Source of the DNA: a virus
Taxonomy: Duplodnaviria; Heunggongvirae; Uroviricota; Caudoviricetes
Direction: 5' to 3' (one strand)
DNA length: 64,000 nucleotides
Virus record (IMG/VR): IMGVR_UViG_3300023179_000049
In this document: in pieces, positions 9,845 to 38,275 of the stretch
How the letters are laid out: each line of letters starts with the position of its first letter
Numbering within the stretch: position 1 is the first letter of the stretch
The notes under the pieces: generated by a model
The model's input: only the letters and a program-made list of their open reading frames with translations
Told to the model about the DNA's origin: nothing
Databases searched by the model: none
Position numbers and translations under genes: made by a program

Positions 9845-10561
9845 TTATTGAATTGAAAGCTGTACAAGATAATACGTACTATTAAAATCTTTACCTGCAA
9901 AAGTAACTCTAGCTAATCCTTGCCCAGATACTTCAAATATTCCTGATTCTGCTCCTTTATTTGCAGTTAAGATTTCTTTAAAGATATTTGCAGAGAAACA
10001 AGTAGCACTTAATTTATTATGCGATGTAGCTTCAACATTAAACTTAATTCTATTAGTATTTACTGTCGAATAGTTAAGTAAGATTTCTGAAGCTATTGCA
10101 TCTGATACTACCGCAAAATTTTCTGCTTCTGGCATACCATTCTTAGCTTTTAAGAATTTTTCAGAGAATTCTTTAGTAATATTAATGCTCACATCAAATT
10201 GAGGAAGTGTTTTTACTTTTGGAACTGCTTTAATAACAGATAAATCCGCTAACATATAAGTAATCGATGTATTCTTATCTTCAACGATCATCGAGAATAC
10301 TTTATCTACAACTTTAACGAACTTAATCTCTACTGAATCATCTAATACAGAAAGCATTTTTAATAATTGACTCGTAGTATATACTGCCAACTCTGCATCT
10401 TCCATATCAACGGATTGTAATGTAACTTCTCCAATTACATTTTGATTTGCGGAAATAAAAGAACATAATAACTGTCCTTCTTTTACAACTAACTTAACAC
10501 TGTCGGTATTACCAGCTAAATAATAGCGGTTGATAAACGATACCAATTTTTCTTTTTGCAT
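9845..10561 (-). CDS. putative sliding clamp (gp45-like)
   Basis: 238 aa, size and position (immediately upstream of clamp loader) as in T4-like phages; no strong motif. Confidence 0.4.
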   Translation of the reverse strand: MQKEKLVSFINRYYLAGNTDSVKLVVKEGQLLCSFISANQNVIGEVTLQSVDMEDAELAVYTTSQLLKMLSVLDDSVEIKFVKVVDKVFSMIVEDKNTSITYMLADLSVIKAVPKVKTLPQFDVSINITKEFSEKFLKAKNGMPEAENFAVVSDAIASEILLNYSTVNTNRIKFNVEATSHNKLSATCFSANIFKEILTANKGAESGIFEVSGQGLARVTFAGKDFNSTYYLVQLSIQ

Positions 10562-10599: not shown

Positions 10600-11808
10600 T
10601 TAATTTTCAAAGAAACTACTTAAAATTTCTCTGTTTTGGCTAGGAACCCAATCTCCTCCATAATTTACATAGTAATGTCTATACTTCTCGTAAATTTTAT
10701 ATGCATTATCTGGCTGATCGAACATTTCATGTATTGATTTAAGTATAATATACATATCATTAGGAACAACGCCTTGTAATAACTCTACATCTCCAGAACA
10801 AAAATCTGCAATATCATACATACCTTTATTAAATACTAATAAATTTTGAATAGTAGCTCTGTCATAATATTCTTGTTTATAATCATTAACTACGCCCATT
10901 GTAAAGTTTTTAGATACCGGTGTATGATAAAGAACAGGTATTGGTTTTGTTTCTGTATACTTAATATCTCTAGAAACATGCATTTGCGTCCAATTTAATG
11001 TTCCAAAATTCGGAGCTAAAATAATATCTCCATATACTGGAAATTGTCCTGGCGAAGAACTATCCGTCATTAATTGAATTTTACCACCATAATGCTTATT
11101 TAAAAGCGCTTGATAAGTTCCAAGTACAAAAAAATCAGATACTTTAGAAATACCTAGCATATGAATAAATTCATTTCTTGGATTTTCAAATTCGCGATTC
11201 TCTAAGAATAAAGCAATAGTATAAATAAAATCTACTAATCTACGACTACCTCCAACACACCATCCTTTAAAATCAAAATGCTTAACGGTATCATACCATA
11301 AATTCCATTGACTAGGATTATTTCCTTGAAGTACGTTTAAAAATTTAGTTTTACCTTGTTGCTTATTAGCAAAGTATTTAAAGTTATCATAACTAAAATC
11401 TAATGATTCTTGAAACTTGCCTTCATAGGACATACGTGGCGGAATATCTAAATTTGCAGCAACATCTGAATTTTCTTCTAAGAATGCTAAGATTTGATCT
11501 CTAATACCTACATCCCATTTAATAGCCCCTGATGCAATCTGGAAACCTCCAGAATCGCCAAATGTAAATACATTCTCTAATCCGAATGTTATACGAGCAT
11601 CCATCTTTTTATAAAAATGCCCTGCCGTAATTAAGAAGTATGGGTGGCGAAATTCTTCTGGAAAATCTTCCGCATAAAATCTAGTTGTTAAACCAGGTTC
11701 AACTTCTCTATTCTTTTTTAAAGAAGCTGCTGTTCCTCCTGCGGATAATGAAGGAATAAATAATGGCTTTCTGTTTGGGTTTGGTGCTGTGATTTTTGAT
11801 AAATCCAT
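10600..11808 (-). CDS. tRNA-guanine transglycosylase-like protein (DpdA-like 7-deazaguanine DNA transglycosylase candidate)
   Basis: 'FGDSGGFQ' (TGT catalytic Asp motif), downstream 'NLDIPP', 'LNVLQGNN', 'GWCVGGS', 'HMLGIS' in TGT order; no C-terminal zinc Cys cluster. Confidence 0.6.
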   Translation of the reverse strand: MDLSKITAPNPNRKPLFIPSLSAGGTAASLKKNREVEPGLTTRFYAEDFPEEFRHPYFLITAGHFYKKMDARITFGLENVFTFGDSGGFQIASGAIKWDVGIRDQILAFLEENSDVAANLDIPPRMSYEGKFQESLDFSYDNFKYFANKQQGKTKFLNVLQGNNPSQWNLWYDTVKHFDFKGWCVGGSRRLVDFIYTIALFLENREFENPRNEFIHMLGISKVSDFFVLGTYQALLNKHYGGKIQLMTDSSSPGQFPVYGDIILAPNFGTLNWTQMHVSRDIKYTETKPIPVLYHTPVSKNFTMGVVNDYKQEYYDRATIQNLLVFNKGMYDIADFCSGDVELLQGVVPNDMYIILKSIHEMFDQPDNAYKIYEKYRHYYVNYGGDWVPSQNREILSSFFEN

Positions 11809-11870
11809 TTTATAACTTATTTTTTATATAATATAAAGATATTATTTCATATATCCTAATGTATGAACAT
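11809..11870 (-). promoter_or_regulatory. conserved intergenic promoter-like motif (variant)
   Basis: Minus-strand 'CATTAGGATATATGAAATAATATCTTTATATTATA' shares the ATTAGGAAATATGAAAT core with 4 other intergenic sites. Confidence 0.4.
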
Positions 11871-11890
11871 AAAAAAAGCCCTTTCGGGCT
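11871..11890 (-). terminator. rho-independent terminator
   Basis: Minus-strand hairpin AGCCCGAAAGGGCT followed by T7 run, at stop of 11890..12699. Confidence 0.6.
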
Positions 11891-12699
11891 TAATTATTTG
11901 TTAAGTTATTTTTTAATTCTTCAATAAATGACTTATATAAATGTGTACCATAATCTTCCTTTAATATAATAGAAACGGCTTTTGCTAAATCTACATATGA
12001 CAGATTAGGATCTATTTGCTCAATAGAATTTGATAATATATTAGCAAGTTGATATGCTTTACCAGATATATCTTGTTCTTTTAATTTCTTTTTAGGTCTT
12101 TTATTGAAACTATCAAATTTATCTACCGGCGCTGGTCCGGTTTTCTTTATTATGTATAAAGTAATAAACGAAAGGGTTGCAATGGTAAAGAATACAAAAA
12201 ATGCATACATTCCTAATTTAAACCAAATACTTCCTTCAGCTGCTTGGGCACCATACATATCAACCATAATCTTCATTACATCTGATTCAGCCATTCCTTG
12301 TATTGTTTTATAATACCATTGATTAAATGATCTGTCTATATACTGTAAACCACCTGCAACAGATAATATTCCACTTACAAAAGAACCTATCCCTCCACCT
12401 AATAAACCACCTTTTGCAAATTGTTTAAGTCTATCTACAAAGCCTTCATTTAAGCTTTGTGAGTCTGTTTCTAACTCCATTTGGGCTTTTTCCATAGCTC
12501 CTTGTGGAAGGGGCTTAGTAGTTAAGTTATCTATATTAACGTGATTAGAAGCTTCTTCGTAGTTAGCTTTAGCAGCTTTTACTGCCGCTGCTTTAATCTT
12601 TGATAAAAAGTCTGTTAGCTTAGATTCAGTTAGTTGTTGTTCAAATACTGCTAGTTGAATCTCTTCTTTGATCAATTGATTAAGTTCTGATTTTTTCAT
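11890..12699 (-). CDS. membrane protein with glycine-zipper/TM segments
   Basis: 269 aa; 'GGLLGGGIGSFVSGILSVAGG' and a second TM; N-terminus 'MKKSELNQLIKEEI' recurs in other ORFs. Confidence 0.4.
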   Translation of the reverse strand: MKKSELNQLIKEEIQLAVFEQQLTESKLTDFLSKIKAAAVKAAKANYEEASNHVNIDNLTTKPLPQGAMEKAQMELETDSQSLNEGFVDRLKQFAKGGLLGGGIGSFVSGILSVAGGLQYIDRSFNQWYYKTIQGMAESDVMKIMVDMYGAQAAEGSIWFKLGMYAFFVFFTIATLSFITLYIIKKTGPAPVDKFDSFNKRPKKKLKEQDISGKAYQLANILSNSIEQIDPNLSYVDLAKAVSIILKEDYGTHLYKSFIEELKNNLTNN

Positions 12700-12716
12700 A
12701 TTTATATTTAATATAA

Positions 12717-13826
12717 TTATTGTTCCAAATAAAAAACATTATCTTTTAACGCTTCTATTCTATAATAATTGGTATCTAAATGTTTCGCCCATTCTTCAAT
12801 ACCTTCTTTATATATATCATAGTTCTCCATACGGTCTTTGATATAATCTATAATTGTTGTATAGTTTTCCGTGTAATTTAAATAACTTAATGTCCAATGT
12901 GAAGGATATCTCCATTTTTCTGGAACTATTTCTTTAAAGTTTAATCTGTCAGGTGCTAATGGTATTGATCCGTGCATTATAGCTTCAAAGGCTGTTATAG
13001 AAGAAGAGTCAATTAAATCTAAGATTAACACATATTTAGAAGAAGCTAATAATCCATGATATTGAGTTTCGTTTGGCATTTTATCTTCTATACATACCCA
13101 TTCGTATTGAGGCAATGCTCGTTGCAGTTCACGAAAAATAATCATGTTACGATCTACCGTACCTTTATCGGCAAATAAAATCATATCACGTTTCTTTGTT
13201 TTTTTAAATTGCTCAGCATAATCACGTACATGAGCCATTGGAGGTCCGGCTTTTTGAACTCGTCCTGGAGTATTAAATAAATGCTTTGCTCCGAATGTTT
13301 TAAATAAGCTCTTAAGTAAAGATAAATGATAATCACTATCATAATAGTTATGATTAATAGCAGCTACTAAAGCTCGTTCTGCATTTTTTTGCCATGTTAA
13401 TGTTTTGGCAAATGAAAGATATGATGTTTTATTAAATGACCCAGATTGCCAAAATCCATGAATCCAAACAGGCGTACGATATACTGTAGATAAATAACGT
13501 AACTGAAAAATAGCAGGGTTCCAGGCATCCATAAAAATAAAATGATCTCCTTGATGAACTTCTTTATTGTAAAAAAGCTCCGCAAATCTAGTAGACTGCG
13601 AAGCTTGTTGATTTACAATATCTTTAAATGTTAATGGACTATTATCTATAATTGATAATGTATTTGGCTGAATATCATAAAGAGTCTTTACTTGATACTT
13701 AAGTGATTTCTTTTGTATATACTCCTCTAAACAATCTCGAAGATTATTTTGCCAATTACGTATATATTTTAATTCAATAGTCTTACTGTCTAAGATATAT
13801 ATCGTCTTCATTATACTAATTCGCAA
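12717..13826 (-). CDS. hypothetical protein, possible GT-B fold glycosyltransferase
   Basis: C-terminal 'SITAFEAIMHGSIPLAP' resembles the E...G.P donor-binding motif of GT-B (GT1/GT4) enzymes; weak. Confidence 0.3.
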   Translation of the reverse strand: MRISIMKTIYILDSKTIELKYIRNWQNNLRDCLEEYIQKKSLKYQVKTLYDIQPNTLSIIDNSPLTFKDIVNQQASQSTRFAELFYNKEVHQGDHFIFMDAWNPAIFQLRYLSTVYRTPVWIHGFWQSGSFNKTSYLSFAKTLTWQKNAERALVAAINHNYYDSDYHLSLLKSLFKTFGAKHLFNTPGRVQKAGPPMAHVRDYAEQFKKTKKRDMILFADKGTVDRNMIIFRELQRALPQYEWVCIEDKMPNETQYHGLLASSKYVLILDLIDSSSITAFEAIMHGSIPLAPDRLNFKEIVPEKWRYPSHWTLSYLNYTENYTTIIDYIKDRMENYDIYKEGIEEWAKHLDTNYYRIEALKDNVFYLEQ

Positions 13827-14170
13827 CGCGCACCATTTTCATTATCTTCCCAAACTTCAACCCAATTACATCCAAATTCATTAAGTATTTCTTTTGCGAG
13901 CATTTCGCAAGATCTATGATCAAATAAATGACTTCGAGAAGATTCATTATAATATTTTTCTTTAAGATAATCTATAATATCGCGCTTAAACATTATAAAT
14001 TCTTTATCTCGATCATCATGAAATACTTCTAACGAAGCTTTAAATGTGAATATGTGTCTGTGATAGTCAGATAAGAATCCTACTTCTGGAAATATATCTT
14101 TTGCAGATTCCCATCTATGAATCCCATCCACATTAACGCTAACTATAACTGTTGTTTTTAAATCTTGCAT
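13811..14170 (-). CDS. hypothetical protein
   Basis: 119-aa ORF immediately downstream of DNA polymerase. Confidence 0.35.
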   Translation of the reverse strand: MQDLKTTVIVSVNVDGIHRWESAKDIFPEVGFLSDYHRHIFTFKASLEVFHDDRDKEFIMFKRDIIDYLKEKYYNESSRSHLFDHRSCEMLAKEILNEFGCNWVEVWEDNENGARCELV

Positions 14171-14192
14171 ATTATAATATAATAAAAACTAA

Positions 14193-16736
14193 TTAAAATT
14201 CAAAGAAATTTTTTCCGTAATTATTCTTCGGCACTTCTGACCAACCTAATGCTCCAAAGAAATCATTAAGTTTATTTTCTAAGGAAGCTTCAAAGATGCT
14301 CGTATAATCGATATATTCCTTAACGATAGAATAGATATCCATTGGATCATTAAAGCCCGTTAAAGCTAAAGTTTCGATACCTAATCGATTAGGTTTTAGG
14401 TAAGTCCATTTTATTTTATCTCCGTCACTAATAGGTGCCATAGAATTAATTTTAAAGTGCTCTAATAAGTCATTAAAATTAGCAGCAGACTTTGCATGAA
14501 TAGGCATACCTTTTGGTCTTGTTTTAAATATAGACCCAGTTTTCTTACAAGGATACTTACTTAATTCTTTAATACCAGAGATGGTCATAATATCATAAAT
14601 GTCTAATGAAGGTAATGAATCTTTAAGCTCAAATATCTTATCAACGATTTCTTGCTTTTCTGCTTTATTAAGAATATCAATAATAATGCCTGACATAAAT
14701 CCTCTAAATGCTTTTGGAAATGAAGATCTTACAACATCCAATCCTTTTACATCTAGTTTATATTCTTTTTTACCATTTGTCATTTTAGATATACTTACAC
14801 CCTTTTCAGAGATAATTTTTTGAGCATATCGCTTTTTTGCAATCCACATTGCTGTTTCAGATACATATTCTTGTTTTGTTTGGAAATAATGTTCTGTTGC
14901 ATTAAATGCGTTCTTTGCAAAATCATCGAAAGTTGAATTAATAACACTTTCACAAGCTACGGCTAATTTAAAAGTAATATCTGAACATTCTTCTTTAGTT
15001 AATTCACGTCCTTGATTTCTTTGCATCTTTTTAATTAACGGCATTGCTGAAAAGAATGCAGAATCTGTATCAATATACAATACATAATCAATACCGCTCG
15101 TTCCTAATTTTTGGTTTAGCCATTCATTAGCATAAGACGTTTTATGCATAATAACTGCTTTACCTCCTAATGTCGTCCCTTCAGCATTGTCGATATCATA
15201 AAATCTAAAACCAGCATTACCTAATACACCGTATAATGAATTAGATAAGATCTTCATAGTTAACTGACGTGAATCAAAGAAACGATACATTTTTTCATTA
15301 CCGCCTTCTCCATATTTCTTCGCAAGTTGTCGATATTCTGTTCTTTCTGTATCCCATTTTTCTAAGATAGATGGAACTAATCCTTTTGTTTTAAGATCAT
15401 ATATTACGCCAACAGCTGAGATAGAAAAGTTATTTTCTTCTAAGAATCTTCTTAGCTCCATTCCTTTCCAAGATTTAGATTTATACTTATATACATAAGT
15501 TTCATCATTCTTCATGAATTTTGTATGGTCCCAATTTTCAATCTTACATACCTTAGTTTCAGGAGAAATATTAATTGTTCTTTGAGTCGAAGGATAAAGA
15601 GCTTTTAAGTCCAAGTCAAATACCCATTCATATAATCCTGGTTTAGGATCTTTTACAAATGCTCCTTCAAATCCATTTTCATCAGAATTTTCTTCTTCAT
15701 CACTTTCTTCTCTTAAAGGTTTATTAGTTGCAATAATTCCTAAACGATTTAAGTAAGTAAGACAAGCTCCGTCCAAATATCTACTTGATGCAAATACATC
15801 TTCATAAGGAACATGACCTTTATGAGCAATGTTTCTTGCTAATGTAATAAAATCAAGCTTTTCATCTAAATCAACAACTAATTGAACGTCATTAATATTA
15901 TACTCAATAAACTTCTCTAAGTCTGTTTTATAAAGATTATCTAAATCTCCATCATACTTTATCTTTCCACGTCCTAATTCTTTTTGAGATATAAATTCTA
16001 AAGCATAAGACGGTTCTTCGTTATAAGTAAATGATCGATATAAGTACATATAATCTAAAGCAGCAACACCTCCAATATTCATTTTATCTTTACGAAAGTC
16101 TTTTGAAACTACTCCAACTGGACTTAATTGCTTTGCAACATTTGCCCCTAGAAGCTTTTTAGTTCTGTTATAAATATAAGGGACGTCAAATCCATCTATA
16201 TTCCATCCAGTTAAAATATCTGGACTGATTTCTAGATAAAGCTGAAAGAATCTGTTTAGTAAGTCTTTTTCTGTTGAAAATGCTTCGAATATATACTTAT
16301 CTGTTCTTTTATTTTTTGTAAGATGTTCTTTATCCAATAATAATACATTCCAATCTTTAGAAATATTATCATATAAAGTTATTGCTGTTACTTCGTTATC
16401 TGCATCCCATGGGGTAGAATAACCATCACCTTTTGATACTTCAATATCAAAAAACAATGTAGTTATGTTTTCTGAAATATCATCTGTATCACCGTAATTA
16501 TCGATTAAAACACGTATTTCAGGTCTTATGTCTGATTCATATATAATACCTCTTTGTTCATCTTCTTTATCCCAATTATATACTTTTTCTACACGATTAC
16601 CGTCTAAAGCAGTATGCTTTCCGTTCGGAGCTTTGATATAAGCATATTTCTTATACTTAAAATTAAGACGACCTTTTTTATCATCCCAAACAATTACTTC
16701 GTTTTGTTCTCTATTGTAATATACGTTTTTATACAT
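14193..16736 (-). CDS. family B DNA polymerase (T4 gp43-like)
   Basis: Exo I 'FFDIEVS', 'YNINDV', pol motif A 'DLDLKALYPS', motif C 'YIDTDS'; 847 aa. Confidence 0.9.
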   Translation of the reverse strand: MYKNVYYNREQNEVIVWDDKKGRLNFKYKKYAYIKAPNGKHTALDGNRVEKVYNWDKEDEQRGIIYESDIRPEIRVLIDNYGDTDDISENITTLFFDIEVSKGDGYSTPWDADNEVTAITLYDNISKDWNVLLLDKEHLTKNKRTDKYIFEAFSTEKDLLNRFFQLYLEISPDILTGWNIDGFDVPYIYNRTKKLLGANVAKQLSPVGVVSKDFRKDKMNIGGVAALDYMYLYRSFTYNEEPSYALEFISQKELGRGKIKYDGDLDNLYKTDLEKFIEYNINDVQLVVDLDEKLDFITLARNIAHKGHVPYEDVFASSRYLDGACLTYLNRLGIIATNKPLREESDEEENSDENGFEGAFVKDPKPGLYEWVFDLDLKALYPSTQRTINISPETKVCKIENWDHTKFMKNDETYVYKYKSKSWKGMELRRFLEENNFSISAVGVIYDLKTKGLVPSILEKWDTERTEYRQLAKKYGEGGNEKMYRFFDSRQLTMKILSNSLYGVLGNAGFRFYDIDNAEGTTLGGKAVIMHKTSYANEWLNQKLGTSGIDYVLYIDTDSAFFSAMPLIKKMQRNQGRELTKEECSDITFKLAVACESVINSTFDDFAKNAFNATEHYFQTKQEYVSETAMWIAKKRYAQKIISEKGVSISKMTNGKKEYKLDVKGLDVVRSSFPKAFRGFMSGIIIDILNKAEKQEIVDKIFELKDSLPSLDIYDIMTISGIKELSKYPCKKTGSIFKTRPKGMPIHAKSAANFNDLLEHFKINSMAPISDGDKIKWTYLKPNRLGIETLALTGFNDPMDIYSIVKEYIDYTSIFEASLENKLNDFFGALGWSEVPKNNYGKNFFEF

Positions 16737-16739
16737 TTG

Positions 16740-17237
16740 TTAATGTTTTTTTATTGTTATAGGATATAATCCTTTATTGTTTTGAGTAATATCAAACTGC
16801 AGAAGAATTGCTCCATTATAATTTACTTTCTTAAATAAAGTATCATTATTACTTAATAAAGCATCTACTACCAACTTTCGCATTTCATTTAAATCATACA
16901 TTACATAAGTGTTAGTATATGTATTTACATGATAGATTCGGTCAGCTCGGCTCGAAAAGAACCAACCGAGCTTTCCGTGATCTTGAATCTCTACTTTAAA
17001 ATGATGGTCCCAATCGCAATACAAATTATTTTTACAGTCTAGATAATATTCTCGTAACCACTCTGGCTTCTTAATACTAAAGTCATAACCGCGCTTTTGA
17101 TGTTCTACTTGACCAGCATAATCAGTTACTTCATAACCATATGATTGTAATATTGATTTAAGCCATTCTTCTCCGATTTGTCCTTTAGTGCCAGTTACTG
17201 GAAATCTCTCTGTTAAGGTTGTATTGTATTGAGCCAC
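16740..17237 (-). CDS. hypothetical protein
   Basis: 165-aa ORF. Confidence 0.4.
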   Translation of the reverse strand: MAQYNTTLTERFPVTGTKGQIGEEWLKSILQSYGYEVTDYAGQVEHQKRGYDFSIKKPEWLREYYLDCKNNLYCDWDHHFKVEIQDHGKLGWFFSSRADRIYHVNTYTNTYVMYDLNEMRKLVVDALLSNNDTLFKKVNYNGAILLQFDITQNNKGLYPITIKKH

Positions 17238-17238
17238 T

Positions 17239-17865
17239 TTATTTTAAGTTCTTAACGAAATTATAAAATTCTTCTCTTACTTTAGCATCGTCTTTAAATG
17301 CTCCTGTTAATTTTGAAGTAATCATTGTCGAATCATGTTGGATACCTCTTAAACAAGCGCATTGATGACCTGCTTTAATCATTACTGCAACTCCTAAGTT
17401 AAACTCACAAGTCTTATCTAAGTAGTCAGAGATTTGCATAGTTAGGTTCTCTTGGACCTGCGGCATACGACAAAAATAATCTACAACGCGATTTAATTTA
17501 CTTAATCCAATTACTTTACCATTAGGCGCTGGAAGATATGCAACATACGCTTTACCTACAAAAGGAAGCGCGTGATGTGAACAAGTAGATTTTACATCTA
17601 TATTACCTTGAAACACCATTCCATCATATCTATCTGTATTAGAAAATGCTGTAATTTTAGGAGGTCCTTGATAAATACCTTTATATAAATCATTAACAAA
17701 TGATTTTGCAACGCGCATCGGTGTATCAGTCATATGTGGATCATTTTTATAATCAAAGCCTAAAGCTGTTAAAAATTCTCCATAAGCTTCTGCGGCATCA
17801 TTTAACATTTCTTGTTTTTCATTCTCATTTAAAATGAGTATTTTATCTACGATTTTTCTTTTCAT
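17239..17865 (-). CDS. folE: GTP cyclohydrolase I (FolE)
   Basis: 'DTPMRVAKSF', 'CSHHALPF', 'PQVQENLT', 'HQCACLRG' - hallmark FolE motifs. Confidence 0.9.
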   Translation of the reverse strand: MKRKIVDKILILNENEKQEMLNDAAEAYGEFLTALGFDYKNDPHMTDTPMRVAKSFVNDLYKGIYQGPPKITAFSNTDRYDGMVFQGNIDVKSTCSHHALPFVGKAYVAYLPAPNGKVIGLSKLNRVVDYFCRMPQVQENLTMQISDYLDKTCEFNLGVAVMIKAGHQCACLRGIQHDSTMITSKLTGAFKDDAKVREEFYNFVKNLK

Positions 17866-18710
17866 AATAATTGTATAGTTTCTTTAACTTGAATTAATTC
17901 TTTTGAGTCTAACCAAAATATATAAACATTATCGCATAATTCCAAAGCTTTATTTATTTTTAATGCATCAATATTATAAGATTCTAATCTTGTATATTTG
18001 TTAGTTTTTAATGGGCATGCCGGTAACGTTGGATTTTCTAATACATCACTTAATCTATAATGCCATGGACCATTAACTTCTATAATTGTTTGAATATCAT
18101 GCAATCCAGAGTTAATAACTACTAAATCATAAGCTATGGATTTTTTTTTATTTGTTATTGAATTAAATATTACTTGATAATATTCATTACCATTAATGCC
18201 ACCCCCATCATAATAACACTTATCTTCTGATATATTATATTGTCTTAGATATTCTTTAATATATAACCTGGCTATATTACTTTGACGGCCAAGGATTTTT
18301 GAAGAATATTTACCATTTTCAATATTTTTTAATATCGTCTCATTACGTCTTTGAATTAAATCAGGGCATTGTGCTGCCTTTGACATATTCAATCTTCTTT
18401 CTGCAGTATAATATTCTGGCGCGCCGCATTTTAACCTACGAACTTCAATTTGCTCAAATGACTTCATTTGACTTCGTGCCGAACTTGACCTCTGAGATTT
18501 TAACTTCTTAGCGACATCTACTCCATAAATTTCTTCGTATGTTCGTCCACGTGCCCTATCTCCGCACTTAATTTTTAGTTCATCTGTTTTTAACTCAGCA
18601 TCTGGGTATTTAGATTTATATTCTTGCTGAGTAATCCCATGCGTCTTTAAATGTGTATTACTAATATATTTAAAGGCTTTATTGCATATTAAGCATATTA
18701 TGGTGTTCAT
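17862..18710 (-). CDS. free-standing endonuclease, Vsr/DUF559-like nuclease domain with N-terminal zinc finger
   Basis: N-term 'CLICNKAF...HLKTH' C2H2-like; C-term 'IIEVNGPWHY' matches (V/I)IE(V/I)NGxxH motif also in 33805..34710. Confidence 0.5.
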   Translation of the reverse strand: MNTIICLICNKAFKYISNTHLKTHGITQQEYKSKYPDAELKTDELKIKCGDRARGRTYEEIYGVDVAKKLKSQRSSSARSQMKSFEQIEVRRLKCGAPEYYTAERRLNMSKAAQCPDLIQRRNETILKNIENGKYSSKILGRQSNIARLYIKEYLRQYNISEDKCYYDGGGINGNEYYQVIFNSITNKKKSIAYDLVVINSGLHDIQTIIEVNGPWHYRLSDVLENPTLPACPLKTNKYTRLESYNIDALKINKALELCDNVYIFWLDSKELIQVKETIQLL

Positions 18711-18760
18711 ATCATATATGTATTTATAATATATATGATGTTAGCACATAAATCTCATCA

Positions 18761-19945
18761 TTATTTTTTTAATAGTTCTGCACATAATTCAGCTTCATGC
18801 CAAATATTTAATTCGAAATCAGGATTATTAGCTACAATCCAAGCTTCTGTTCTTCTTCCTAAGTCGCTTCTTTCAACAATACCATAATTAGTACTTCCGC
18901 CATAATATACATCAGCAACAGTATTATTAAGAACATTAACTGCTGAATTTATATCAAAAGGAGTATACATTCTATCTGCTGGTACTTGTTCTGGAAATCC
19001 TCTAAAATTAGGATATACTACATCAATACCAAATGCTGTACCTTCTACAATTGTAAATGATACCCAATCTTGTAAAGAAGAATTAAAGATAATAGCATTC
19101 GAAGCTAATTCTTCATAATATTCTTCTTTAGTTAATCCTTCTAATAATTTGAATCTAGGTTCTTTAGCAGCATATTCTCTAAAAGCATCTATAACGCCCG
19201 GAAGCATACTTCTTAATGATTTACCAGATGTAGTAACGTGCCATTCAAACGTTATATCTTCACTTAAGAATTTCTTAGCTACCTCAAGCATAAAGAATGG
19301 ATTTTTTTCTTTATCTAGTCTTGACGAAAACATAACTACCTTTTTCTTTGGCTCTTGTAACTTTTCTTTCCAATTTGGAACTTTACTTCTTATTTCATCT
19401 GCTGATACCGGCATAGATACAACATGTATTGGACAAGTAAATCCATCAGCTCTTAACAAGTCTCTATGTAAGGTGCTTCCAACAAACATACCACTTAAAC
19501 GCTTATCTAGCCCCAATTCGTAATGTCTCATCCACTTTCTCATTGCAAAGGTAAAATCATATTCGTCCGAAGATTGAGCCCAATTACGAGCGTAAAACTT
19601 AATATCTTTATAACCGTAAAGATCTAAAGCATAAAAAATACTTTCAATACCCGGAGTCCAAAAATCTTGCAAGAATATAATATCTCCATTCTTTACATTA
19701 CCTTCATTAAGTAATGATAGAAAGTTAGCGCATTGACTCATTGCATACTTACCTCTACCTACAGCATCTAATACTGCACCTACTTTAATTTCTTGAGTTT
19801 CATCAAATTCGCCTGGAATATCAATAAAATTAATTTTATCGTTTTGAAGATTAAATGCTTCCGGCATCCATTTAGTACTTAGTTGATAAGTGTATCTTGC
19901 TTTTAAGGGTTCTAACCCAAAATAGAATAAATTTTTCTTTGTCAT
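18761..19945 (-). CDS. hypothetical protein, possible GT-B fold glycosyltransferase
   Basis: 'FTIVEGTAFGIDVVYPN' resembles GT-B E..G.PV motif; weak. Confidence 0.3.
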   Translation of the reverse strand: MTKKNLFYFGLEPLKARYTYQLSTKWMPEAFNLQNDKINFIDIPGEFDETQEIKVGAVLDAVGRGKYAMSQCANFLSLLNEGNVKNGDIIFLQDFWTPGIESIFYALDLYGYKDIKFYARNWAQSSDEYDFTFAMRKWMRHYELGLDKRLSGMFVGSTLHRDLLRADGFTCPIHVVSMPVSADEIRSKVPNWKEKLQEPKKKVVMFSSRLDKEKNPFFMLEVAKKFLSEDITFEWHVTTSGKSLRSMLPGVIDAFREYAAKEPRFKLLEGLTKEEYYEELASNAIIFNSSLQDWVSFTIVEGTAFGIDVVYPNFRGFPEQVPADRMYTPFDINSAVNVLNNTVADVYYGGSTNYGIVERSDLGRRTEAWIVANNPDFELNIWHEAELCAELLKK

Positions 19946-19981
19946 ATCATTAATATAAGAGAAACAACTGTAAAAACCAAA

Positions 19982-20281
19982 TTACAGAACCATTAATAAT
20001 TCAGATTCTCTTAAAATAATATAATCTTTGCCGTCAATCTTAATATCATTTCCTTGATGATATGGAGGAAGAACTACTTTATCTCCTACTTTTACAGACA
20101 TAGGAATTGGTGCTCCGCTTTGTGTAAAAATGCCATCACCTACGGCTACTACTGTTGTAAATTTTACATCTTCTGTTGATGCCGAGTCAGGAATAAAAAA
20201 TCCTGCTTCTGTTGTTTTTTCTTCGTTTTTAGGAAGAGCTTCTACTAAAACTCTATCTCCTAATGGTTTACTTGTTATCAT
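19982..20281 (-). CDS. groS: co-chaperonin GroES (Hsp10)
   Basis: 'KPLGDRVLVE...EEKTTEAGFFIPDSA...GDKVVL' typical GroES. Confidence 0.85.
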   Translation of the reverse strand: MITSKPLGDRVLVEALPKNEEKTTEAGFFIPDSASTEDVKFTTVVAVGDGIFTQSGAPIPMSVKVGDKVVLPPYHQGNDIKIDGKDYIILRESELLMVL

Positions 20282-20304
20282 AACTTTATTTTATTTATTA
20301 ATGT

Positions 20305-20826
20305 TTATTTAATTTTAGCTATATATAGCCCTAGCTTACCCATGAATTTACTAGTATCCCAATAATATCCAATACTATTTAATAAAGATTCATTACCATG
20401 TAATATAGAAGCATAAATACTTAATTTCTTTTTAGCTTCAATATCATTCTTACCAAATGGTATTACAGTAACTACATCTGGGTTGTTTTGTTTAATCCAT
20501 TCTAAGGTTGATTTAACTACTATTCCTAGTATATTGGCTAATGTATTATAGTCTGTTTTATATTTTTGTATTGTAGAATCTTCAATATCAAATCCAATAT
20601 TATAATATGTATTAGGATTGAATTTATTATATAGAATGGATCCTCGCTGAAACATTATTTTTCCATCATGGTCAAATTTTTCTATTTTTACTCCAACATC
20701 TAAATCTTTAACTTTAAATCTAACATCTTGATTTAATTTTAAAGTAATAGGTGTCGAATTTTCAAAATCAATAGACTCTGCTAATTGATTATAAAGAGTG
20801 TTATATTTTATTTTATTAATGCTCAT
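20305..20826 (-). CDS. hypothetical protein
   Basis: 173-aa ORF. Confidence 0.4.
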   Translation of the reverse strand: MSINKIKYNTLYNQLAESIDFENSTPITLKLNQDVRFKVKDLDVGVKIEKFDHDGKIMFQRGSILYNKFNPNTYYNIGFDIEDSTIQKYKTDYNTLANILGIVVKSTLEWIKQNNPDVVTVIPFGKNDIEAKKKLSIYASILHGNESLLNSIGYYWDTSKFMGKLGLYIAKIK

Positions 20827-20864
20827 AATTATATTTTTATTATATTTTTCTTTTAAAGAAACAT

Positions 20865-21308
20865 TTATATATTAAAATTTTCGTTTTTTAACATTATAAA
20901 ATCCTGCATATCTTTTTTACGAGCATATTTTTTCTTAGCTTCGATTATTTCATTTATAGGAACTAGAGGATACTTAACATTATTATAAGTATAATATAAT
21001 GAACCTATATTACCTGTATAATTATCAATACATAATATATTTAGATATAAATCTGATTTCTTAAATTTAAAATTATTATCTCCGGGAGAACCGCCATTAA
21101 TATTAAAAAACTCTAATCCTTTTAAATATATTTTTTGATCTCTTGTAGGATTGACTATTATTATATCTAAATCTCCTACAGATCTAGAAAAATTTAATCC
21201 TAATAATTTTAGAACCAATGTTCCACCTAATCTAACATTAGATTGGTATTCTGATAAATCTTTAATTATTATATTAAAGGTATCTAAGTATTTGTTTAAT
21301 TCTTTCAT
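20865..21308 (-). CDS. hypothetical protein
   Basis: 147-aa ORF; upstream 27-bp sequence duplicated at 22434-22460. Confidence 0.4.
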   Translation of the reverse strand: MKELNKYLDTFNIIIKDLSEYQSNVRLGGTLVLKLLGLNFSRSVGDLDIIIVNPTRDQKIYLKGLEFFNINGGSPGDNNFKFKKSDLYLNILCIDNYTGNIGSLYYTYNNVKYPLVPINEIIEAKKKYARKKDMQDFIMLKNENFNI

Positions 21309-21334
21309 AACTTATACGTTTAATGTTTTTTGGT

Positions 21335-21898
21335 TTATACTGCTGCAAATCTTACTATACAACCTGTATATCCAATTGGCCTATATTCTTCAGGATTGTC
21401 CAATACTTTTTCTAACATATCACGAATCATTTGTTTATCATCTTCATATGTTTTGATAGGTGCATCAATGTTTTGAGGAAATTCAGGTGACCAAGATATA
21501 GTAATACTTTGTTTTGGTTCAAATGTTTCTAGATTATATGTTGTAGGTGCAAATACACAACCATCTTTTACTGGTTTGTACATTTCTCCCGGTTCATATA
21601 TTTTTGGAGTAAAGTTTAAAGTGTAAATATATCCTACTTTATGTTTGTAAGTTGGATTGTCTGAATCTGATATTTTCATAGACTTTGCAACTATTGCTTT
21701 TTGTTTATCTTCAGTTAATCCAGCAGGTAGTTCCATCCATATAATTTTATCAAACTCAAAATGCTTGATTAACTCTGCTTCTACTTGATCACGCTGTTCT
21801 TCGGTTAGTTGCGTAATTTTTTCAATGTTATTATAACCATAAGCCTTGTCTGCACTTCCGCAAATTGATAATAATTTTTCTGTTAAATTTGATTTCAT
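21335..21898 (-). CDS. hypothetical protein
   Basis: 187-aa ORF. Confidence 0.4.
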   Translation of the reverse strand: MKSNLTEKLLSICGSADKAYGYNNIEKITQLTEEQRDQVEAELIKHFEFDKIIWMELPAGLTEDKQKAIVAKSMKISDSDNPTYKHKVGYIYTLNFTPKIYEPGEMYKPVKDGCVFAPTTYNLETFEPKQSITISWSPEFPQNIDAPIKTYEDDKQMIRDMLEKVLDNPEEYRPIGYTGCIVRFAAV

Positions 21899-21902
21899 AT
21901 TT

Positions 21903-22247
21903 TTATTTTTTTATAACATTAATTTTAACATCTCCATTAATAATTTGCTCTTGTACCTTAGATGCTTCTTTGAAGTTTTTACAATCTGTCACATCTACAT
22001 TGATTGTTATTCCTAATTCTTTTAATTGCTTAGGCGTTAGTGGTTTAATAGGCTCAGATTCTACAAATTTAGGATATGTTCTTTTAAGGGGTTCTTTTTT
22101 TAAGAAGTAACCTGATATATCAACATATTTAAGTAGATCTTTATCTCCTTCAATTGTAGTCGTTCCTTGTGTTGCTTTGAGCATTGCTATTTTATATCCA
22201 AGTTTATTAGCAAGCCATTTTACAATTAGTATTGTTGTTCTTTTCAT
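21903..22247 (-). CDS. hypothetical protein
   Basis: 114-aa ORF. Confidence 0.4.
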   Translation of the reverse strand: MKRTTILIVKWLANKLGYKIAMLKATQGTTTIEGDKDLLKYVDISGYFLKKEPLKRTYPKFVESEPIKPLTPKQLKELGITINVDVTDCKNFKEASKVQEQIINGDVKINVIKK

Positions 22248-22253
22248 AATTTT

Positions 22254-22433
22254 ATTTTATTTATCTATTATATTTTGTAATCGTTTAATCTCATCAATTA
22301 TATCATCACCTAATTCAATTTTAGACATCATTGTTAGATCTATTACTTGAGAATAAAGTAAGTTTATCAGTTGTTGTTGAGCTGCCATTTTTGCAGATAT
22401 CATTTGTGATACATTTTGTAGTTCTTTATTCAT
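22254..22433 (-). CDS. small hypothetical protein (59 aa, below ORF-track cutoff)
   Basis: Hand translation MNKELQNVSQMISAKMAAQQQLINLLYSQVIDLTMMSKIELGDDIIDEIKRLQNIIDK; same 27-bp upstream sequence as 20865..21308. Confidence 0.3.
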
Positions 22434-22444
22434 AACTTATACGT

Positions 22445-23248
22445 TTAATGTTTTTTATTTTTAATTTGTTCTATAAATTTATCATGTCCTAGAGCTCGTT
22501 TCATTGAATTGATTCGTTTTTTTGTATATACTAAATTTTCAATATTACAAACTTGCTCTGGTGATAATTGCAATTTCATCGCCTCCGTAATTGATATTTT
22601 ATGATCGACTGAAGGGTAATCTCCATGTGACCAATGTAAATTAAAGTTATCTCTAATATATTCTCCTGTATAATAATCAGTCCCATCCCATATTTTTTGT
22701 AATTCTTGTCTCTTTGATATTGTAAGCCGTCTAACTATTTTAGTATACTCTTTTTTACTCATACCATTAACGAATATAGTTGGGTCATGCCAAATACCAG
22801 ACTTTATACTAGTTTTTCTTCTCTTTTCAATCGCACTTGCAGAATTTGAATTAATTCTACGTAGTTCATTTTGAGGCGGTATTAAATTACTTTTTTTCCA
22901 AATACCATAACAAGTCCTAGAACAAAAATAATATTTTTTATCTTTATAAACCCTCTTTTTAATGCTTTTACTGCACTGATCACATTGTACGATTTTAAGA
23001 TTTGATTTGTTAATCTGGCATTCTTCGCTACAATACTTGTTGGATGTAACTAACTGTTTATTACTAATAAAGGAATTGTTACATCCAACACATGTATAAG
23101 TATATTCTTTATAAGTTCGTAACTTAGCCGCTTCTGAGTATTTTTTTCGTATATCATTAGCTTTAGAAATACCATATTCATTTTCTAATGAAATTCCTTT
23201 TCGATGACTATATTTCATATTAATATCTTTAATATAAATATCTGACAT
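22445..23248 (-). CDS. HNH homing endonuclease with zinc-finger modules
   Basis: Multiple CxxC pairs; 'HWSHGDYPSVDHKISITEAMK...N' HNH core (H...DH...N). Confidence 0.65.
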   Translation of the reverse strand: MSDIYIKDINMKYSHRKGISLENEYGISKANDIRKKYSEAAKLRTYKEYTYTCVGCNNSFISNKQLVTSNKYCSEECQINKSNLKIVQCDQCSKSIKKRVYKDKKYYFCSRTCYGIWKKSNLIPPQNELRRINSNSASAIEKRRKTSIKSGIWHDPTIFVNGMSKKEYTKIVRRLTISKRQELQKIWDGTDYYTGEYIRDNFNLHWSHGDYPSVDHKISITEAMKLQLSPEQVCNIENLVYTKKRINSMKRALGHDKFIEQIKNKKH

Positions 23249-23270
23249 CTAAGGTTTTATTCCAAGAAAG

Positions 23271-24104
23271 TTATACATTAATTACCCGGTCCCATGCCGC
23301 AATGTGCAATCTTGTTAATCCTCTGAACTTATACTTTTTAGCCATTTCTAAGATAAAATGAGTTCTTTCATGATATTGTTCTTGACTATCCATTCCTGGC
23401 ATCGCTACTACATTCTTCAAAGGAATCTTAAATGGTTCTATAAAGTCTCTAAACATCTCTTTTACATCATCTTCAGTTGAAATAACGAACTTAAATTGAT
23501 AGTTATCGTGTTCCATTATGCGTTCAATAGCTGCAGGAACTATTCTTTGTTTCTCGGTCATACCTGAGTTGGATAGCTTAGGTGAGCAATTAATTTGAGA
23601 TAACCTAGCAAATAAAGCATCTTCAATGTATAGAGTACCGTTTGTTTCTATCTCAGAGTATAATGTTTCTGGAGATGAATTTTGTTGGTAATAGTACTTG
23701 ATAAAGTTAACAATAGCTTCCTGATGTCCCTTAATTGTAGGTTCTCCACCAGTCCAAATGATATGAATAGTACCATTCTTAATGTGTTCATAGATACCCT
23801 GCTCTTTCCATTGATCAATTAGATATTGAAACTCTTTATCTTCACCTCTCCATAACCATTGAGATGTTGAATCACAAGTCCATGTTGCTTTACCTTCCTT
23901 ATGTAAATCACCCTCAAAGATCTCTCCATCCTCTAATGATTTATCTTTCATTAAATTGTTAGTGAATGCTCTACTCATTCCGCAAGTTAAATTGCATATT
24001 CCTAATCTTACAAAATATGATGGTATTCCTGATGAAATGCCCTCGCCTTGCACACTATAAAAATCACTACTAATTAGTAGTTTGTCCGTGTTTATTTTAC
24101 TCAT
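23271..24104 (-). CDS. queE: 7-carboxy-7-deazaguanine synthase (QueE, radical SAM)
   Basis: 'FYSVQGEGISSGIPSYFVRLGICNLTCG' = QueE N-terminal signature with CxxxC...C. Confidence 0.85.
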   Translation of the reverse strand: MSKINTDKLLISSDFYSVQGEGISSGIPSYFVRLGICNLTCGMSRAFTNNLMKDKSLEDGEIFEGDLHKEGKATWTCDSTSQWLWRGEDKEFQYLIDQWKEQGIYEHIKNGTIHIIWTGGEPTIKGHQEAIVNFIKYYYQQNSSPETLYSEIETNGTLYIEDALFARLSQINCSPKLSNSGMTEKQRIVPAAIERIMEHDNYQFKFVISTEDDVKEMFRDFIEPFKIPLKNVVAMPGMDSQEQYHERTHFILEMAKKYKFRGLTRLHIAAWDRVINV

Positions 24105-24118
24105 AACTTTTTATTTAT

Positions 24119-24748
24119 TTAAATATATAATAAATTTTTATTTCTTTTCAAAGCTTCCGTAATAAAATTTAATTCATTTGCAACGTTTTCAATATCTGGT
24201 AATATTTCGTTAAATCTAGAAAATCTATGCCCTGCATTTTCAAACTTCTTTAAAGTCTTTCTATACGGGAAGTATTGATCTAGTTTATCAAACGTTAAAC
24301 GTTCATCGTCAGAAGAAATATAAAAATATAAATTTGATGATGTAATAGATGATGATTGAATAGTATCAAATAAAAACTTTAACGAATCTAAATATTCTTT
24401 CTTAAATTCATAAGGTTCTCCATTTCCGTAACGAGTATGTGTTCCTATATCTTTAGCTAAAGACATATGAGGTTCTAAGGAAGGATTAATTACAAATGCT
24501 GGTACATCAAATCTAGCTGCGCAATATAAAGCATAAAATCCACCTAATGAAGTGCCTACAACAATCACAGGACCTTTAGTACCTTTAATAATTGAAGATA
24601 ATGTACTTACTGCTTCTTTAGGATTAGCTGATAATGTAGGACTAATTATGTTTACCTTAGGCCCGTATTTTGAAAAGTACTTTATAAGTTGATTGGATTT
24701 ATCATTATCTCCGGAAGATTTAAATCCATGTATATAAATTATATTCAT
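24119..24748 (-). CDS. alpha/beta hydrolase, YqiA-type esterase
   Basis: 'IIYIHGFKSS', nucleophile elbow 'GTSLGG'. Confidence 0.55.
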   Translation of the reverse strand: MNIIYIHGFKSSGDNDKSNQLIKYFSKYGPKVNIISPTLSANPKEAVSTLSSIIKGTKGPVIVVGTSLGGFYALYCAARFDVPAFVINPSLEPHMSLAKDIGTHTRYGNGEPYEFKKEYLDSLKFLFDTIQSSSITSSNLYFYISSDDERLTFDKLDQYFPYRKTLKKFENAGHRFSRFNEILPDIENVANELNFITEALKRNKNLLYI

Positions 24749-25317
24749 TATTTTGTATATGTTTTTGTATATTTAAAGTCTTCAATATTTTCATACCCGG
24801 CTATTTTACCTACGATTACTTTTTCATATGGAACACCGCCTATTAATCTTGTGTAATGTATACCATCTGGGTTAAGATTTAAAATTTCTTTATTTAAAAT
24901 TTCAGCAGCATACTTATTAGGAATTGGTTTATACCCATGTTTAAGTTTAATATGCTCCGTTTTTCCAGATACTTCTGTCCATGCTCTATTTAATTTTAAA
25001 TCTTCTGCCCATAAATCATAAAGTGCTTTCTTACCTTCTTCAGACCCATCACTACCAGCGCCGATTCCTTTTCTTCCTTTAAAATCTTTATATAAAGATA
25101 TAGCTACGATTTTGCCGTTTTTGCGTACTAATTTCCATAGACTCGATGTTTCAATTAATTCATCTATAGAAGATGCGCCTTTATATCCGCCAATGTCTTC
25201 GTATGAAGTTTGGAGCATGTCCCAGACTAACTGACCGTATTTTCTTTTGTCAGAACTATCTGTGATATTAACATATCTTTCTAAAAGTAACTCATTATAA
25301 AGCCTTTTTAATTTCAT
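24748..25317 (-). CDS. hypothetical protein
   Basis: 189-aa ORF. Confidence 0.4.
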   Translation of the reverse strand: MKLKRLYNELLLERYVNITDSSDKRKYGQLVWDMLQTSYEDIGGYKGASSIDELIETSSLWKLVRKNGKIVAISLYKDFKGRKGIGAGSDGSEEGKKALYDLWAEDLKLNRAWTEVSGKTEHIKLKHGYKPIPNKYAAEILNKEILNLNPDGIHYTRLIGGVPYEKVIVGKIAGYENIEDFKYTKTYTK

Positions 25318-25586
25318 TTTATTATTTCATTATATGATGTCCATCGAAATTGCTCTTCGGTATCATCAGGTAATGAAGGTACTGGCATTGCCAACATTAT
25401 CTCATTATCAACACTTCTACCGATTGCAATAAATCCATAACCTTCGCATATCTCTGGTACATACGTATCCGGTTGTAAAGAATCTGCTTTTTCTAAGATA
25501 TCAAAATCCCATTCGATACCATTGGGGTCATTATTTTCAACCCATTGTTTACTGTAATTTGCCATAACTTGTTTTTTTGTTAACAA
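25314..25586 (-). CDS. hypothetical protein
   Basis: 90-aa ORF, overlaps neighbours by 4-7 nt. Confidence 0.35.
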   Translation of the reverse strand: MLTKKQVMANYSKQWVENNDPNGIEWDFDILEKADSLQPDTYVPEICEGYGFIAIGRSVDNEIMLAMPVPSLPDDTEEQFRWTSYNEIIK

Positions 25587-26188
25587 CCGTAATGTTGTTC
25601 GTGATTAATTGTTTGATTTGTATTATTTATTTTAATATTATCTTCGTAGTATATTGAGCTGTTTTTATTATTTTCCATAAATTCAACTTGAGCTACTTTA
25701 ACTCTGCCATTAGTTTCTTCTAAAACAAATTTATTTACTTTATTATAAATATATTTTGCAAATTGTTCTGCTCCTGTAGCTGGTATGATTCTTAGTTGTA
25801 TCATTTCTTTAGAGTGCATAACTTTAAAAAATTCTACTTGTGGATCGTCCTCAGATATAATAGTCGTATGATCAAACATGTAATCCATCCATTCTTTAGG
25901 ATTCTTACCATCAATATGACCATTAGCTCGTTTCATACCTCCGAAATCCCAAACCCAATTACGTTCATCTAGTTCACCTTCAAATGTTATACGAAATGAT
26001 ACTCCATATCCATGTAAGAATCTACAATGAGTTCCTTCTGCTTTCCATTGACGAAATACACAACTGTAACCGTCAAATAATTTTGTTGATTGAAATTTTT
26101 TCATATTAGTTATTAATGCTATATTTTTTCTTGTTTTTAATGGTATTGAAGTATATTTCATCCACTCTATATAAATAGTTTGGGTCAT
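25580..26188 (-). CDS. queD: 6-carboxytetrahydropterin synthase (QueD/PTPS family)
   Basis: 'THCRFLHGYGVSF' (Cx3HGx motif of QueD/PTPS), Glu/His further downstream. Confidence 0.7.
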   Translation of the reverse strand: MTQTIYIEWMKYTSIPLKTRKNIALITNMKKFQSTKLFDGYSCVFRQWKAEGTHCRFLHGYGVSFRITFEGELDERNWVWDFGGMKRANGHIDGKNPKEWMDYMFDHTTIISEDDPQVEFFKVMHSKEMIQLRIIPATGAEQFAKYIYNKVNKFVLEETNGRVKVAQVEFMENNKNSSIYYEDNIKINNTNQTINHEQHYGC

Positions 26189-34710: not shown

Positions 34711-34752
34711 ATTCTTTATTATAAATATATAAATAATAAAATTTTTATATAT

Positions 34753-36634: not shown

Positions 36635-38275
<1,641 letters not shown>

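Follow-up and report, generated by a model that had tools for sequence, protein, structure and literature searches.

A predicted QueC-less, DpdL-containing 7-deazaguanine DNA-modification module in an uncultured freshwater T4-like phage

The window, a stretch of 64 kb of IMG/VR virus record IMGVR_UViG_3300023179_000049 (Caudoviricetes), carries between positions 10,600 and 26,188 a set of 7-deazaguanine DNA-modification genes embedded in a replisome cluster. The G+C content is about 30%. All substantial open reading frames (ORFs) are on the minus strand. The first-pass annotation had named four pathway genes, folE, queD, queE and a gene resembling tRNA-guanine transglycosylase (TGT). All four are real; dpdL and two GT4-like glycosyltransferase genes (X1 and X2) had been left out. 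The module consists of the following genes.

10600..11808, minus strand: divergent DpdA2-like guanine transglycosylase without zinc, predicted DNA 7-deazaguanine insertase; 402 aa, FGDSGGFQ.
12717..13811, minus strand: X1, GT4-like GT-B glycosyltransferase; overlaps dpdL by one base (TAATG).
13811..14170, minus strand: dpdL, QueD paralogue, proposed decarboxylase of 7-carboxy-7-deazaguanine (CDG) yielding 7-deazaguanine (DG); 119 aa, directly downstream of the gene for the family B DNA polymerase (PolB).
17239..17865, minus strand: folE, GTP cyclohydrolase I, GTP to dihydroneopterin triphosphate (H2NTP); Pfam PF01227 GTP_cyclohydroI E 2.3e-50, phrog_2197 E 4e-59.
18761..19945, minus strand: X2, GT4-like glycosyltransferase, paralogue of X1; between the GroES and folE genes.
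23271..24104, minus strand: queE, radical-S-adenosylmethionine (SAM) CDG synthase; phrog_2076 QueE-like E 1.6e-40.
25580..26188, minus strand: queD, synthase of 6-carboxytetrahydropterin (CPH4), phage CxxxHGY type; Pfam PTPS E 9e-15, phrog_2389 QueD-like E 3e-41.

Along the minus strand the order is dUTPase, QueD, QueE, GroES, X2, FolE, PolB, DpdL, X1, a 269-aa ORF, DpdA2-like transglycosylase, putative clamp, clamp loader. Of the phage 7-deazaguanine DNA-modification pathway, the window probably encodes the branch that has DpdL and lacks QueC. Best prediction for the modified base is 2'-deoxy-7-deazaguanosine (dDG) or a derivative, over the deoxynucleoside of CDG (dCDG) or host-supplied 7-cyano-7-deazaguanine (preQ0).

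Biosynthetic genes, DpdL and absence of QueC

FolE contains the CSHH motif and is 54% identical to the protein of Flavobacterium phage immuto, 61% to that of the relative L008 and 47% to that of Cellulophaga phage phiST. QueD is 71% identical to the immuto protein and 58% to the phiST protein, and has CxxxHGY instead of the canonical CxxxHGH. The motif HCxxLHGY is common to QueD of phiSM, phiST and immuto; since the DNA of these three phages is experimentally known to be modified, the CxxxHGY protein is a functional phage form. QueE is matched by five NCBIfam QueE models, all below cut-offs (best E 5e-14), and is 28% identical to QueE of phage MA9V-3 (E 3e-30). Its cysteines at 37, 41 and 77 are spaced Cx3Cx35C; relative to Cx3Cx7C in the immuto sequence, the radical-SAM cluster loop carries a long insertion. 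The trio for CDG synthesis is thus present, at 28–71% identity to enzymes of phages with proven modified DNA, and its earlier assignment is confirmed in position and in Pfam or PHROG family.

The ORF at 13811-14170 is, by sequence, a clear DpdL homologue, for which decarboxylation of CDG is proposed. It is found by tblastn with phiST DpdL (gp040; 35% identity, E 2e-20) and matched by phrog_17812 (E 1.6e-26). It carries LSDYHRHIF, an exact LxxxHRHxF signature; this motif, replacing CxxxHGH, separates DpdL from QueD (Cui et al. 2023, PMC10516641). A DpdL hidden Markov model (HMM) that includes the window sequence also detects DpdL in 12 other phage and metagenome loci. In published work DpdL marks QueC-less phages and the QueC-less branch gives dDG in phiST; the decarboxylase activity is only proposed (PMC10516641).

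In Chryseobacterium phage MA9V-3 (L003:21539-22420, 293 aa) and Vibrio phage Bakedbeans (L020:9221-10372, 383 aa), DpdL is the C-terminal portion of a larger protein and follows a further, N-terminal domain. A 139-aa ORF at the DpdL position of L008-type relatives (L008:8405-8824) is not recognised by the DpdL HMM. These relatives, at 51% identity, may have a different final base, or a non-homologous enzyme instead of DpdL.

QueC is absent from the window, as the first-pass annotation had stated: tblastn with two phage QueC proteins gave a best E of 0.25, and the PP-loop motif SGGxD[ST] occurs in none of the six frames. A search of the rest of the genome had been advised. The low-coordinate end could be extended by about 6 kb through an overlapping contig (L030), in which no queC was seen; the opposite end has no exact match on record for extension. 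No annotated QueC is present in the flanks of any fetched DpdL locus. DpdL thus occurs in the window alongside FolE, QueD, QueE and a DpdA, with QueC absent from the 64 kb and the flank of about 6 kb. With DpdL present, a lack of QueC is what one expects of the DG branch, as in QueC-less phiST, and no sign that CDG is inserted or that the host is needed.

Transglycosylase and glycosyltransferases

The TGT-like protein contains FGDSGGFQ and only two cysteines (C184 and C337); the zinc site CxCxxC..H is thus absent. Both features had been reported in the first-pass annotation, and the intact zinc site of tRNA-specific Tgt, there named as the sign of a tRNA enzyme, is not there. No Pfam, PHROG or PDB sequence match was obtained. 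The family comprises more than 650 clusters at 90% identity and 1140 metagenomic representatives at 50% identity (E<=1e-3). Pfam TGT weakly matches 11 of 33 sampled members (E 7.7e-7 or weaker), and two members checked against NCBIfam are below its TGT cut-offs. Invariant in the family are D85 (DSGGFQ), D121, D249 (TDSSSP), Q161-G162, G186 and H216-x-L-G219. D85, D121 and D249 are, in that order, the counterparts of the general acid/base, base-recognition residue and nucleophile in TGT and DpdA. The hhalign match to the single E. coli Tgt sequence is weak (probability 3.5%); the motifs nonetheless align consistently. Fold comparison gave 21.9 for bacterial TGT (3unt), 21.9 for the Salmonella DNA preQ0 insertase DpdA (7ui4), 21.6 for QTRT2, 16.9 for archaeosine TGT, 16.5 for Cap10 and 13.3 or less for generic TIM barrels.

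The link to a known subfamily runs through gp123 of phage ACP17. This protein weakly matches the window protein (E 1.5e-6) and is 34-36% identical (E about 1e-38) to DpdA2 of Vibrio phages nt-1 and VH7D. Six DpdA2-like proteins, including that of VH7D, aligned against the window family with 97.2% probability (E 4.5e-11) over 175 columns of the catalytic core; DSGG(F/L)Q, the second Asp, QG, HxLG and the nucleophile Asp are aligned. The window protein has no direct BLAST match to DpdA2 of VH7D or nt-1, and the window-family HMM reaches VH7D DpdA2 only at E 2e-4. Length is similar (400-460 aa in the VH7D and nt-1 type). The window protein appears to be a zinc-less transglycosylase of DpdA2-like type, most fittingly placed in a divergent sister clade of DpdA2. 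A DpdA-family transglycosylase of the TGT fold, as in phage deazaguanine systems, is present in the window. VH7D DpdA2 has been shown to insert 7-aminomethyl-7-deazaguanine (preQ1), preQ0 and traces of CDG into DNA; these relatives and the genomic context suggest that the window protein, too, acts on DNA. The VH7D and nt-1 systems differ from the window in that they have QueC (with or without QueF), insert preQ0 or preQ1 at low levels, and lack DpdL as well as a glycosyltransferase beside dpdA.

Membership in three other groups was rejected. For DpdA3, hhalign gave a probability of 4.7% (P 0.009), tblastn gave no match, and the length is 402 aa against 259-264 aa (phiST and immuto). For bacterial Tgt, both the CxCxxC...H zinc site and a Pfam TGT match are missing. 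For bacterial DpdA, the zinc site is again missing. The context also differs: phage replisome and deazaguanine cluster in the window, queA/yajC or a dpdB-K cluster for Tgt and bacterial DpdA. No match to a ParB/DpdB-like family was found among the ORFs scanned from 9.8 to 26.2 kb; no search was aimed at DpdB. The view that zinc loss marks a DNA-acting enzyme holds in part. Bacterial DpdA retains a zinc site, CXCX2CX22H (PMC10164549), but no cysteine is invariant in the alignments of sampled phage DpdA2-like and DpdA3 proteins.

X1 is confidently assigned a GT-B/GT4 fold and retains the (E/D)x7E motif. X2 matches Pfam Glycos_transf_1 below cut-off (E 1e-4) and retains Dx7E; the two-Rossmann GT-B fold with (E/D)x7E is found in both. 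The glycosyltransferase encoded immediately upstream of the L008 TGT-like gene is 61% identical to X2, which also matches gp124 of ACP17 (E 9e-22). The one-base overlap of X1 and dpdL suggests translational coupling.

GT4-like homologues adjoin dpdL and/or a DpdA2-like gene in phages PA5oct (gp168, gp167, gp166), ACP17 (gp123, gp124, gp125), Phosso (gp223, gp224), BUCT-ZZ01, BCSR5 and Xanthomonas phage X1, and in the metagenomic relative L016. BUCT-ZZ01, BCSR5 and Xanthomonas phage X1 were added by HMM searches; in these the glycosyltransferase abuts dpdL or dpdA. In L008 it adjoins the TGT-like gene, yet DpdL is not detectable. With the X1 protein as tblastn query, all matching phage records (14/14, among 50,697) are DpdL-encoding phages. 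No GT4-like gene lies within the 9-15 kb flanks of four phages with DpdL and DpdA3 (phiST, MA9V-3, RHph_I1_18, Bakedbeans), nor in the fetched 1.5-5 kb flanks of the QueC-bearing DpdA2 phages VH7D, Moby and pf16. Within about 10 kb of dpdL, the gene is present in 8/8 sampled systems with DpdL and a DpdA2-like enzyme against 0/4 with DpdL and DpdA3, a split that is a raw count from few lineages. The association with the DpdL + DpdA2-like architecture is well supported as a tight, lineage-spanning pattern. It goes beyond published work: in the literature searched, this GT4-like glycosyltransferase is never mentioned and has no published role.

The window (6409-7107), L008 (15668-21185) and L016 (2187-5515 and 18028-21257) have other glycosyltransferase and sugar-nucleotide genes as well, whose products may act on DNA, the virion or the host envelope. 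The additional sugar-related genes of the window and its relatives comprise GT2, GT1/GT4, GFO/IDH/MocA and ADH oxidoreductases, CTP-transferase and PIG-L.

Predicted route to dDG and competing explanations

The predicted route starts from GTP, which FolE would convert to H2NTP. QueD would make CPH4 and QueE would make CDG. DpdL would strip the carboxyl group from CDG to give DG. The zinc-less DpdA2-like transglycosylase would swap guanine in phage DNA for DG by means of the Asp85 / Asp121 / Asp249 triad. The end product would be dDG-substituted DNA, resistant to restriction enzymes. X1 and X2, part of the same conserved module, may be accessory for insertion or may further modify the base.

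Direct support comes from the homology of five proteins, the DpdL motif, the TGT fold, active-site conservation, the absence of QueC in the window and synteny. Inferred are the chemistry of DpdL, action on DNA instead of tRNA, and which base is finally present and to what extent. The first-pass reading, a 7-deazaguanine DNA modification, was right in kind; its CDG, queC elsewhere or host supply are superseded by the DpdL route.

Phage phiST (Cui et al. 2023, PMC10516641) has FolE, QueD, QueE, DpdL and DpdA3 and no QueC; its DNA contains 302,000 dDG per 10^6 nucleotides, with dG and dCDG undetected. The window has the same biosynthetic set without QueC (QueD 58%, FolE 47%, DpdL 35% identical) and an identical LxxxHRHxF motif, and the pathway genes adjoin the DNA polymerase gene in both. 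Unlike that of phiST, the window transglycosylase is not DpdA3 (402 aa against 259 aa; hhalign 4.7% probability). phiST has no GT4-like gene, and has a MazG gene and a small ATPase gene in its cluster; its polymerase is of the Pol III alpha type, that of the window family B.

The core of DpdA2-like, GT4-like and DpdL proteins is shared, with detectable homology for all three, with ACP17, PA5oct, Phosso, BUCT-ZZ01, BCSR5 and Xanthomonas phage X1. Modules of the ACP17 / PA5oct type also have FolE, QueD and QueE, usually beside replication genes. Identity to them is low (transglycosylase 26-27%, glycosyltransferase 25-29%), and the window differs in two glycosyltransferase paralogues and a spread over 15.6 kb. 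PA5oct DNA resists cleavage at G-containing restriction sites; the homologous module there is gp166-168. In the literature searched, the modified base of ACP17 / PA5oct-type phages has had no chemical determination.

Several points weigh against the DpdL route. The 64 kb are part of a probably larger genome, and the absence of queC holds for these and the flank of about 6 kb. The TGT-like protein is below the Pfam and NCBIfam TGT thresholds, and fold comparison fails to set it apart from tRNA-acting TGTs. All measurements of dDG come from phages of the DpdA3 type (phiST and relatives), none from the architecture with a DpdA2-like enzyme and glycosyltransferase. When dpdL and dpdA of phiST or ACP17 were co-expressed in E. 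coli, no dDG resulted, which for ACP17 the authors ascribed possibly to 'other unknown enzymes' (PMC10516641). Conserved glycosyltransferases without a role in the published dDG scheme suggest that the scheme is incomplete for this architecture.

The last two points lead to the alternative that survives best. It is conceivable, at considerably lower probability than the DpdL route to dDG, that the X1-type glycosyltransferase is an obligatory third component of DpdL + DpdA2-like systems, which either modifies 7-deazaguanine further, for example by glycosylation after or together with the action of DpdL and the transglycosylase, or is needed as a catalytic or non-catalytic partner of the DpdA2-like enzyme for DG insertion. 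The GT4-like enzyme is an obvious candidate for the 'unknown enzymes' behind the failed ACP17 reconstitution; a requirement for DG insertion would explain why ACP17 dpdL and dpdA alone gave no dDG in E. coli. As a glycosylating enzyme it might convert DNA-borne or free 7-deazaguanine to a glycosylated derivative, for example a C7-glycoside, a new DNA hypermodification. The overlap of X1 with dpdL, the conserved fold and motif, the restriction of tblastn matches to DpdL-encoding phages, the HMM-added phages and the flanks without such a gene in DpdA3 phages and in VH7D, Moby and pf16 all point in this direction. Glycosylation meets the difficulty that C7 of dDG offers no obvious O- or N-acceptor, which would call for a C-glycoside or another acceptor site; glycosylated deazaguanine in DNA has never been reported in the literature searched. 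The other glycosyltransferase and sugar-metabolism genes of these phages may have unrelated roles, and the pattern comes from few lineages and about 10 kb around dpdL.

It is improbable that the genome carries queC, perhaps with queF or gat-queC, outside the window, or that the host provides it, the base then being preQ0, 7-amido-7-deazaguanine (ADG), preQ1 or 7-formamidino-7-deazaguanine (G+). The genome is probably larger than the 64-kb window, and in immuto queC is located about 11 kb from the other pathway genes. However, DpdL marks QueC-less phages (PMC10516641), and no QueC was found either as an annotated gene in the flanks of fetched DpdL loci or in the 6 kb past the window end.

A similarly small chance is given to a pre-replicative route, in which a phosphoribosyltransferase would yield the nucleoside monophosphate, this would be converted to the deoxynucleoside triphosphate (dNTP) and incorporated by PolB, the TGT-like enzyme being secondary or tRNA-acting. 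Genes resembling hypoxanthine-guanine phosphoribosyltransferase (HGPRT) are present in the clusters of L008, L016, BUCT-ZZ01 and immuto; the window module sits among PolB, putative clamp and ribonucleotide reductase genes; and a supply through dNTP pools makes the complete replacement of G in phiST and immuto easier to imagine. Against this, no phosphoribosyltransferase was found in the window (best tblastn E 0.005, within the tail-sheath gene), the enzyme might instead recycle guanine freed by transglycosylation, DpdA is treated in published work as a signature of post-replicative insertion, and tRNA genes are absent from the window.

Least likely is insertion of CDG itself to give dCDG with nothing active downstream of QueE, which would fit the absence of QueC from the window, the very inefficient insertion of CDG by VH7D DpdA2 (67 per 10^6 nucleotides) and the dCDG in STSV-2 DNA, but not a well-conserved DpdL with intact signature whose stop codon overlaps the next gene's start, nor the lack of detected dCDG in phiST, which has the same FolE, QueD, QueE and DpdL set with a DpdA3-type transglycosylase.

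Genomic setting, host and significance

Other genes in and around the module are as follows.

9845-10561, minus strand: putative clamp; assigned by position beside the clamp-loader genes, without Pfam, PHROG or PDB sequence match.
11890-12699, minus strand: 269-aa membrane-like ORF with hydrophobic, transmembrane-like segments; between X1 and the DpdA2-like gene.
14193..16736, minus strand: family B DNA polymerase; Pfam DNA_pol_B E 3e-30, exonuclease domain E 3e-19.
19982-20281, minus strand: GroES, Cpn10 E 3e-24; inside the deazaguanine cluster, likewise in L008 and L016.
36635-38251, minus strand: GroEL, 51% identical to immuto GroEL.

The name 'clamp', given in the first-pass annotation to the gene before the TGT-like gene, thus reflects position only. 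Free-standing endonuclease genes, said to be interspersed with the pathway genes, were not recovered: no scanned intervening ORF has a nuclease-family match, and the sole nuclease-like match, a weak one to REase_MTES_1575 at 33805-34710, is outside 10600-26188.

The relative L016 has the same order of PolB, DpdL, glycosyltransferase, TGT-like enzyme and putative clamp, with a TGT-like protein 47% identical. The same order is found in L008, except for the non-DpdL 139-aa ORF in the DpdL slot. The 269-aa ORF is absent from both relatives, in which the glycosyltransferase and TGT-like genes abut. The module spans 15.6 kb in the window, with inserted ORFs without assigned function, against about 8 kb in L008-type relatives. 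Relatives have an HGPRT-like gene between FolE and PolB, where the window has an unrelated 165-aa ORF (16740-17237). Hypoxanthine/xanthine-guanine phosphoribosyltransferase-like genes inside the cluster are located at L008:5359-5865, L016:5517-6020, L021:5441-5902 (BUCT-ZZ01) and L001:21921-22316 (immuto). The product could salvage the guanine that transglycosylation sets free, or turn deazaguanine into a nucleotide.

The replication and morphogenesis genes of the window are T4-like and comprise those for family B DNA polymerase, clamp-loader subunits, gp32-like ssDNA-binding protein, RecA/UvsX-like protein, class II ribonucleotide reductase, dUTPase, ATP-dependent ligase, GroES, GroEL, tail sheath and baseplate proteins. 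A DnaB-like helicase is apparently split. Its N-terminal and central part is encoded at 34753-35541 (phrog_19, E 9e-28); intein C-terminal splicing / HINT fragments followed by DnaB_C are encoded at 32652-33818. Between the parts lies the 301-aa ORF with the REase_MTES_1575 match (33805-34710, phrog_22677). The region 32652-35541 may contain a split intein; alternatively, a free-standing endonuclease gene may have disrupted an intein there. A 450-aa ORF at 42478-43830 has a sub-threshold DNA_pol_A match (E 5e-7), besides the family B polymerase of the same genome.

No DNA-level relative was found by megablast of 17 kb of the window against 50,697 phage records; a close cultured relative is thus absent from these records. 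The nearest cultured homologue of PolB is only 41% identical. Freshwater metagenome contigs carry genes identical to those of the window. The phage is uncultured, freshwater and T4-like, is represented solely by metagenome contigs, and has a genome probably larger than 64 kb. Its host probably belongs to the Bacteroidota, as suggested by a protein with the Por_Secre_tail sorting domain of the type IX secretion system (T9SS), encoded by close relatives and by the contig running about 6 kb past the low end. In this contig, just beyond window position 1, the Cohesin / Por_Secre_tail protein is encoded at L030:5800-7677, and an unusually long thymidylate-synthase-family protein of 417 aa at L030:2839-4092. 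The latter could be a pyrimidine hydroxymethylase, and thus provide a second DNA modification.

Among the known phage deazaguanine systems of the DpdL type, this one is a new, uncultured member with a divergent DpdA2-like transglycosylase. It adds a freshwater phage to those in which 7-deazaguanine is predicted to take the place of guanine. DNA of this kind is resistant to restriction enzymes, and its sequencing may be biased. Because the transglycosylase clade is large (the 1140 clusters given above), the chemistry may be common in aquatic viromes. The pairing with a GT4-like enzyme provides a concrete candidate for the 'unknown enzyme' whose lack may have held up dDG reconstitution. It may also point to a further, undescribed hypermodification of guanine.

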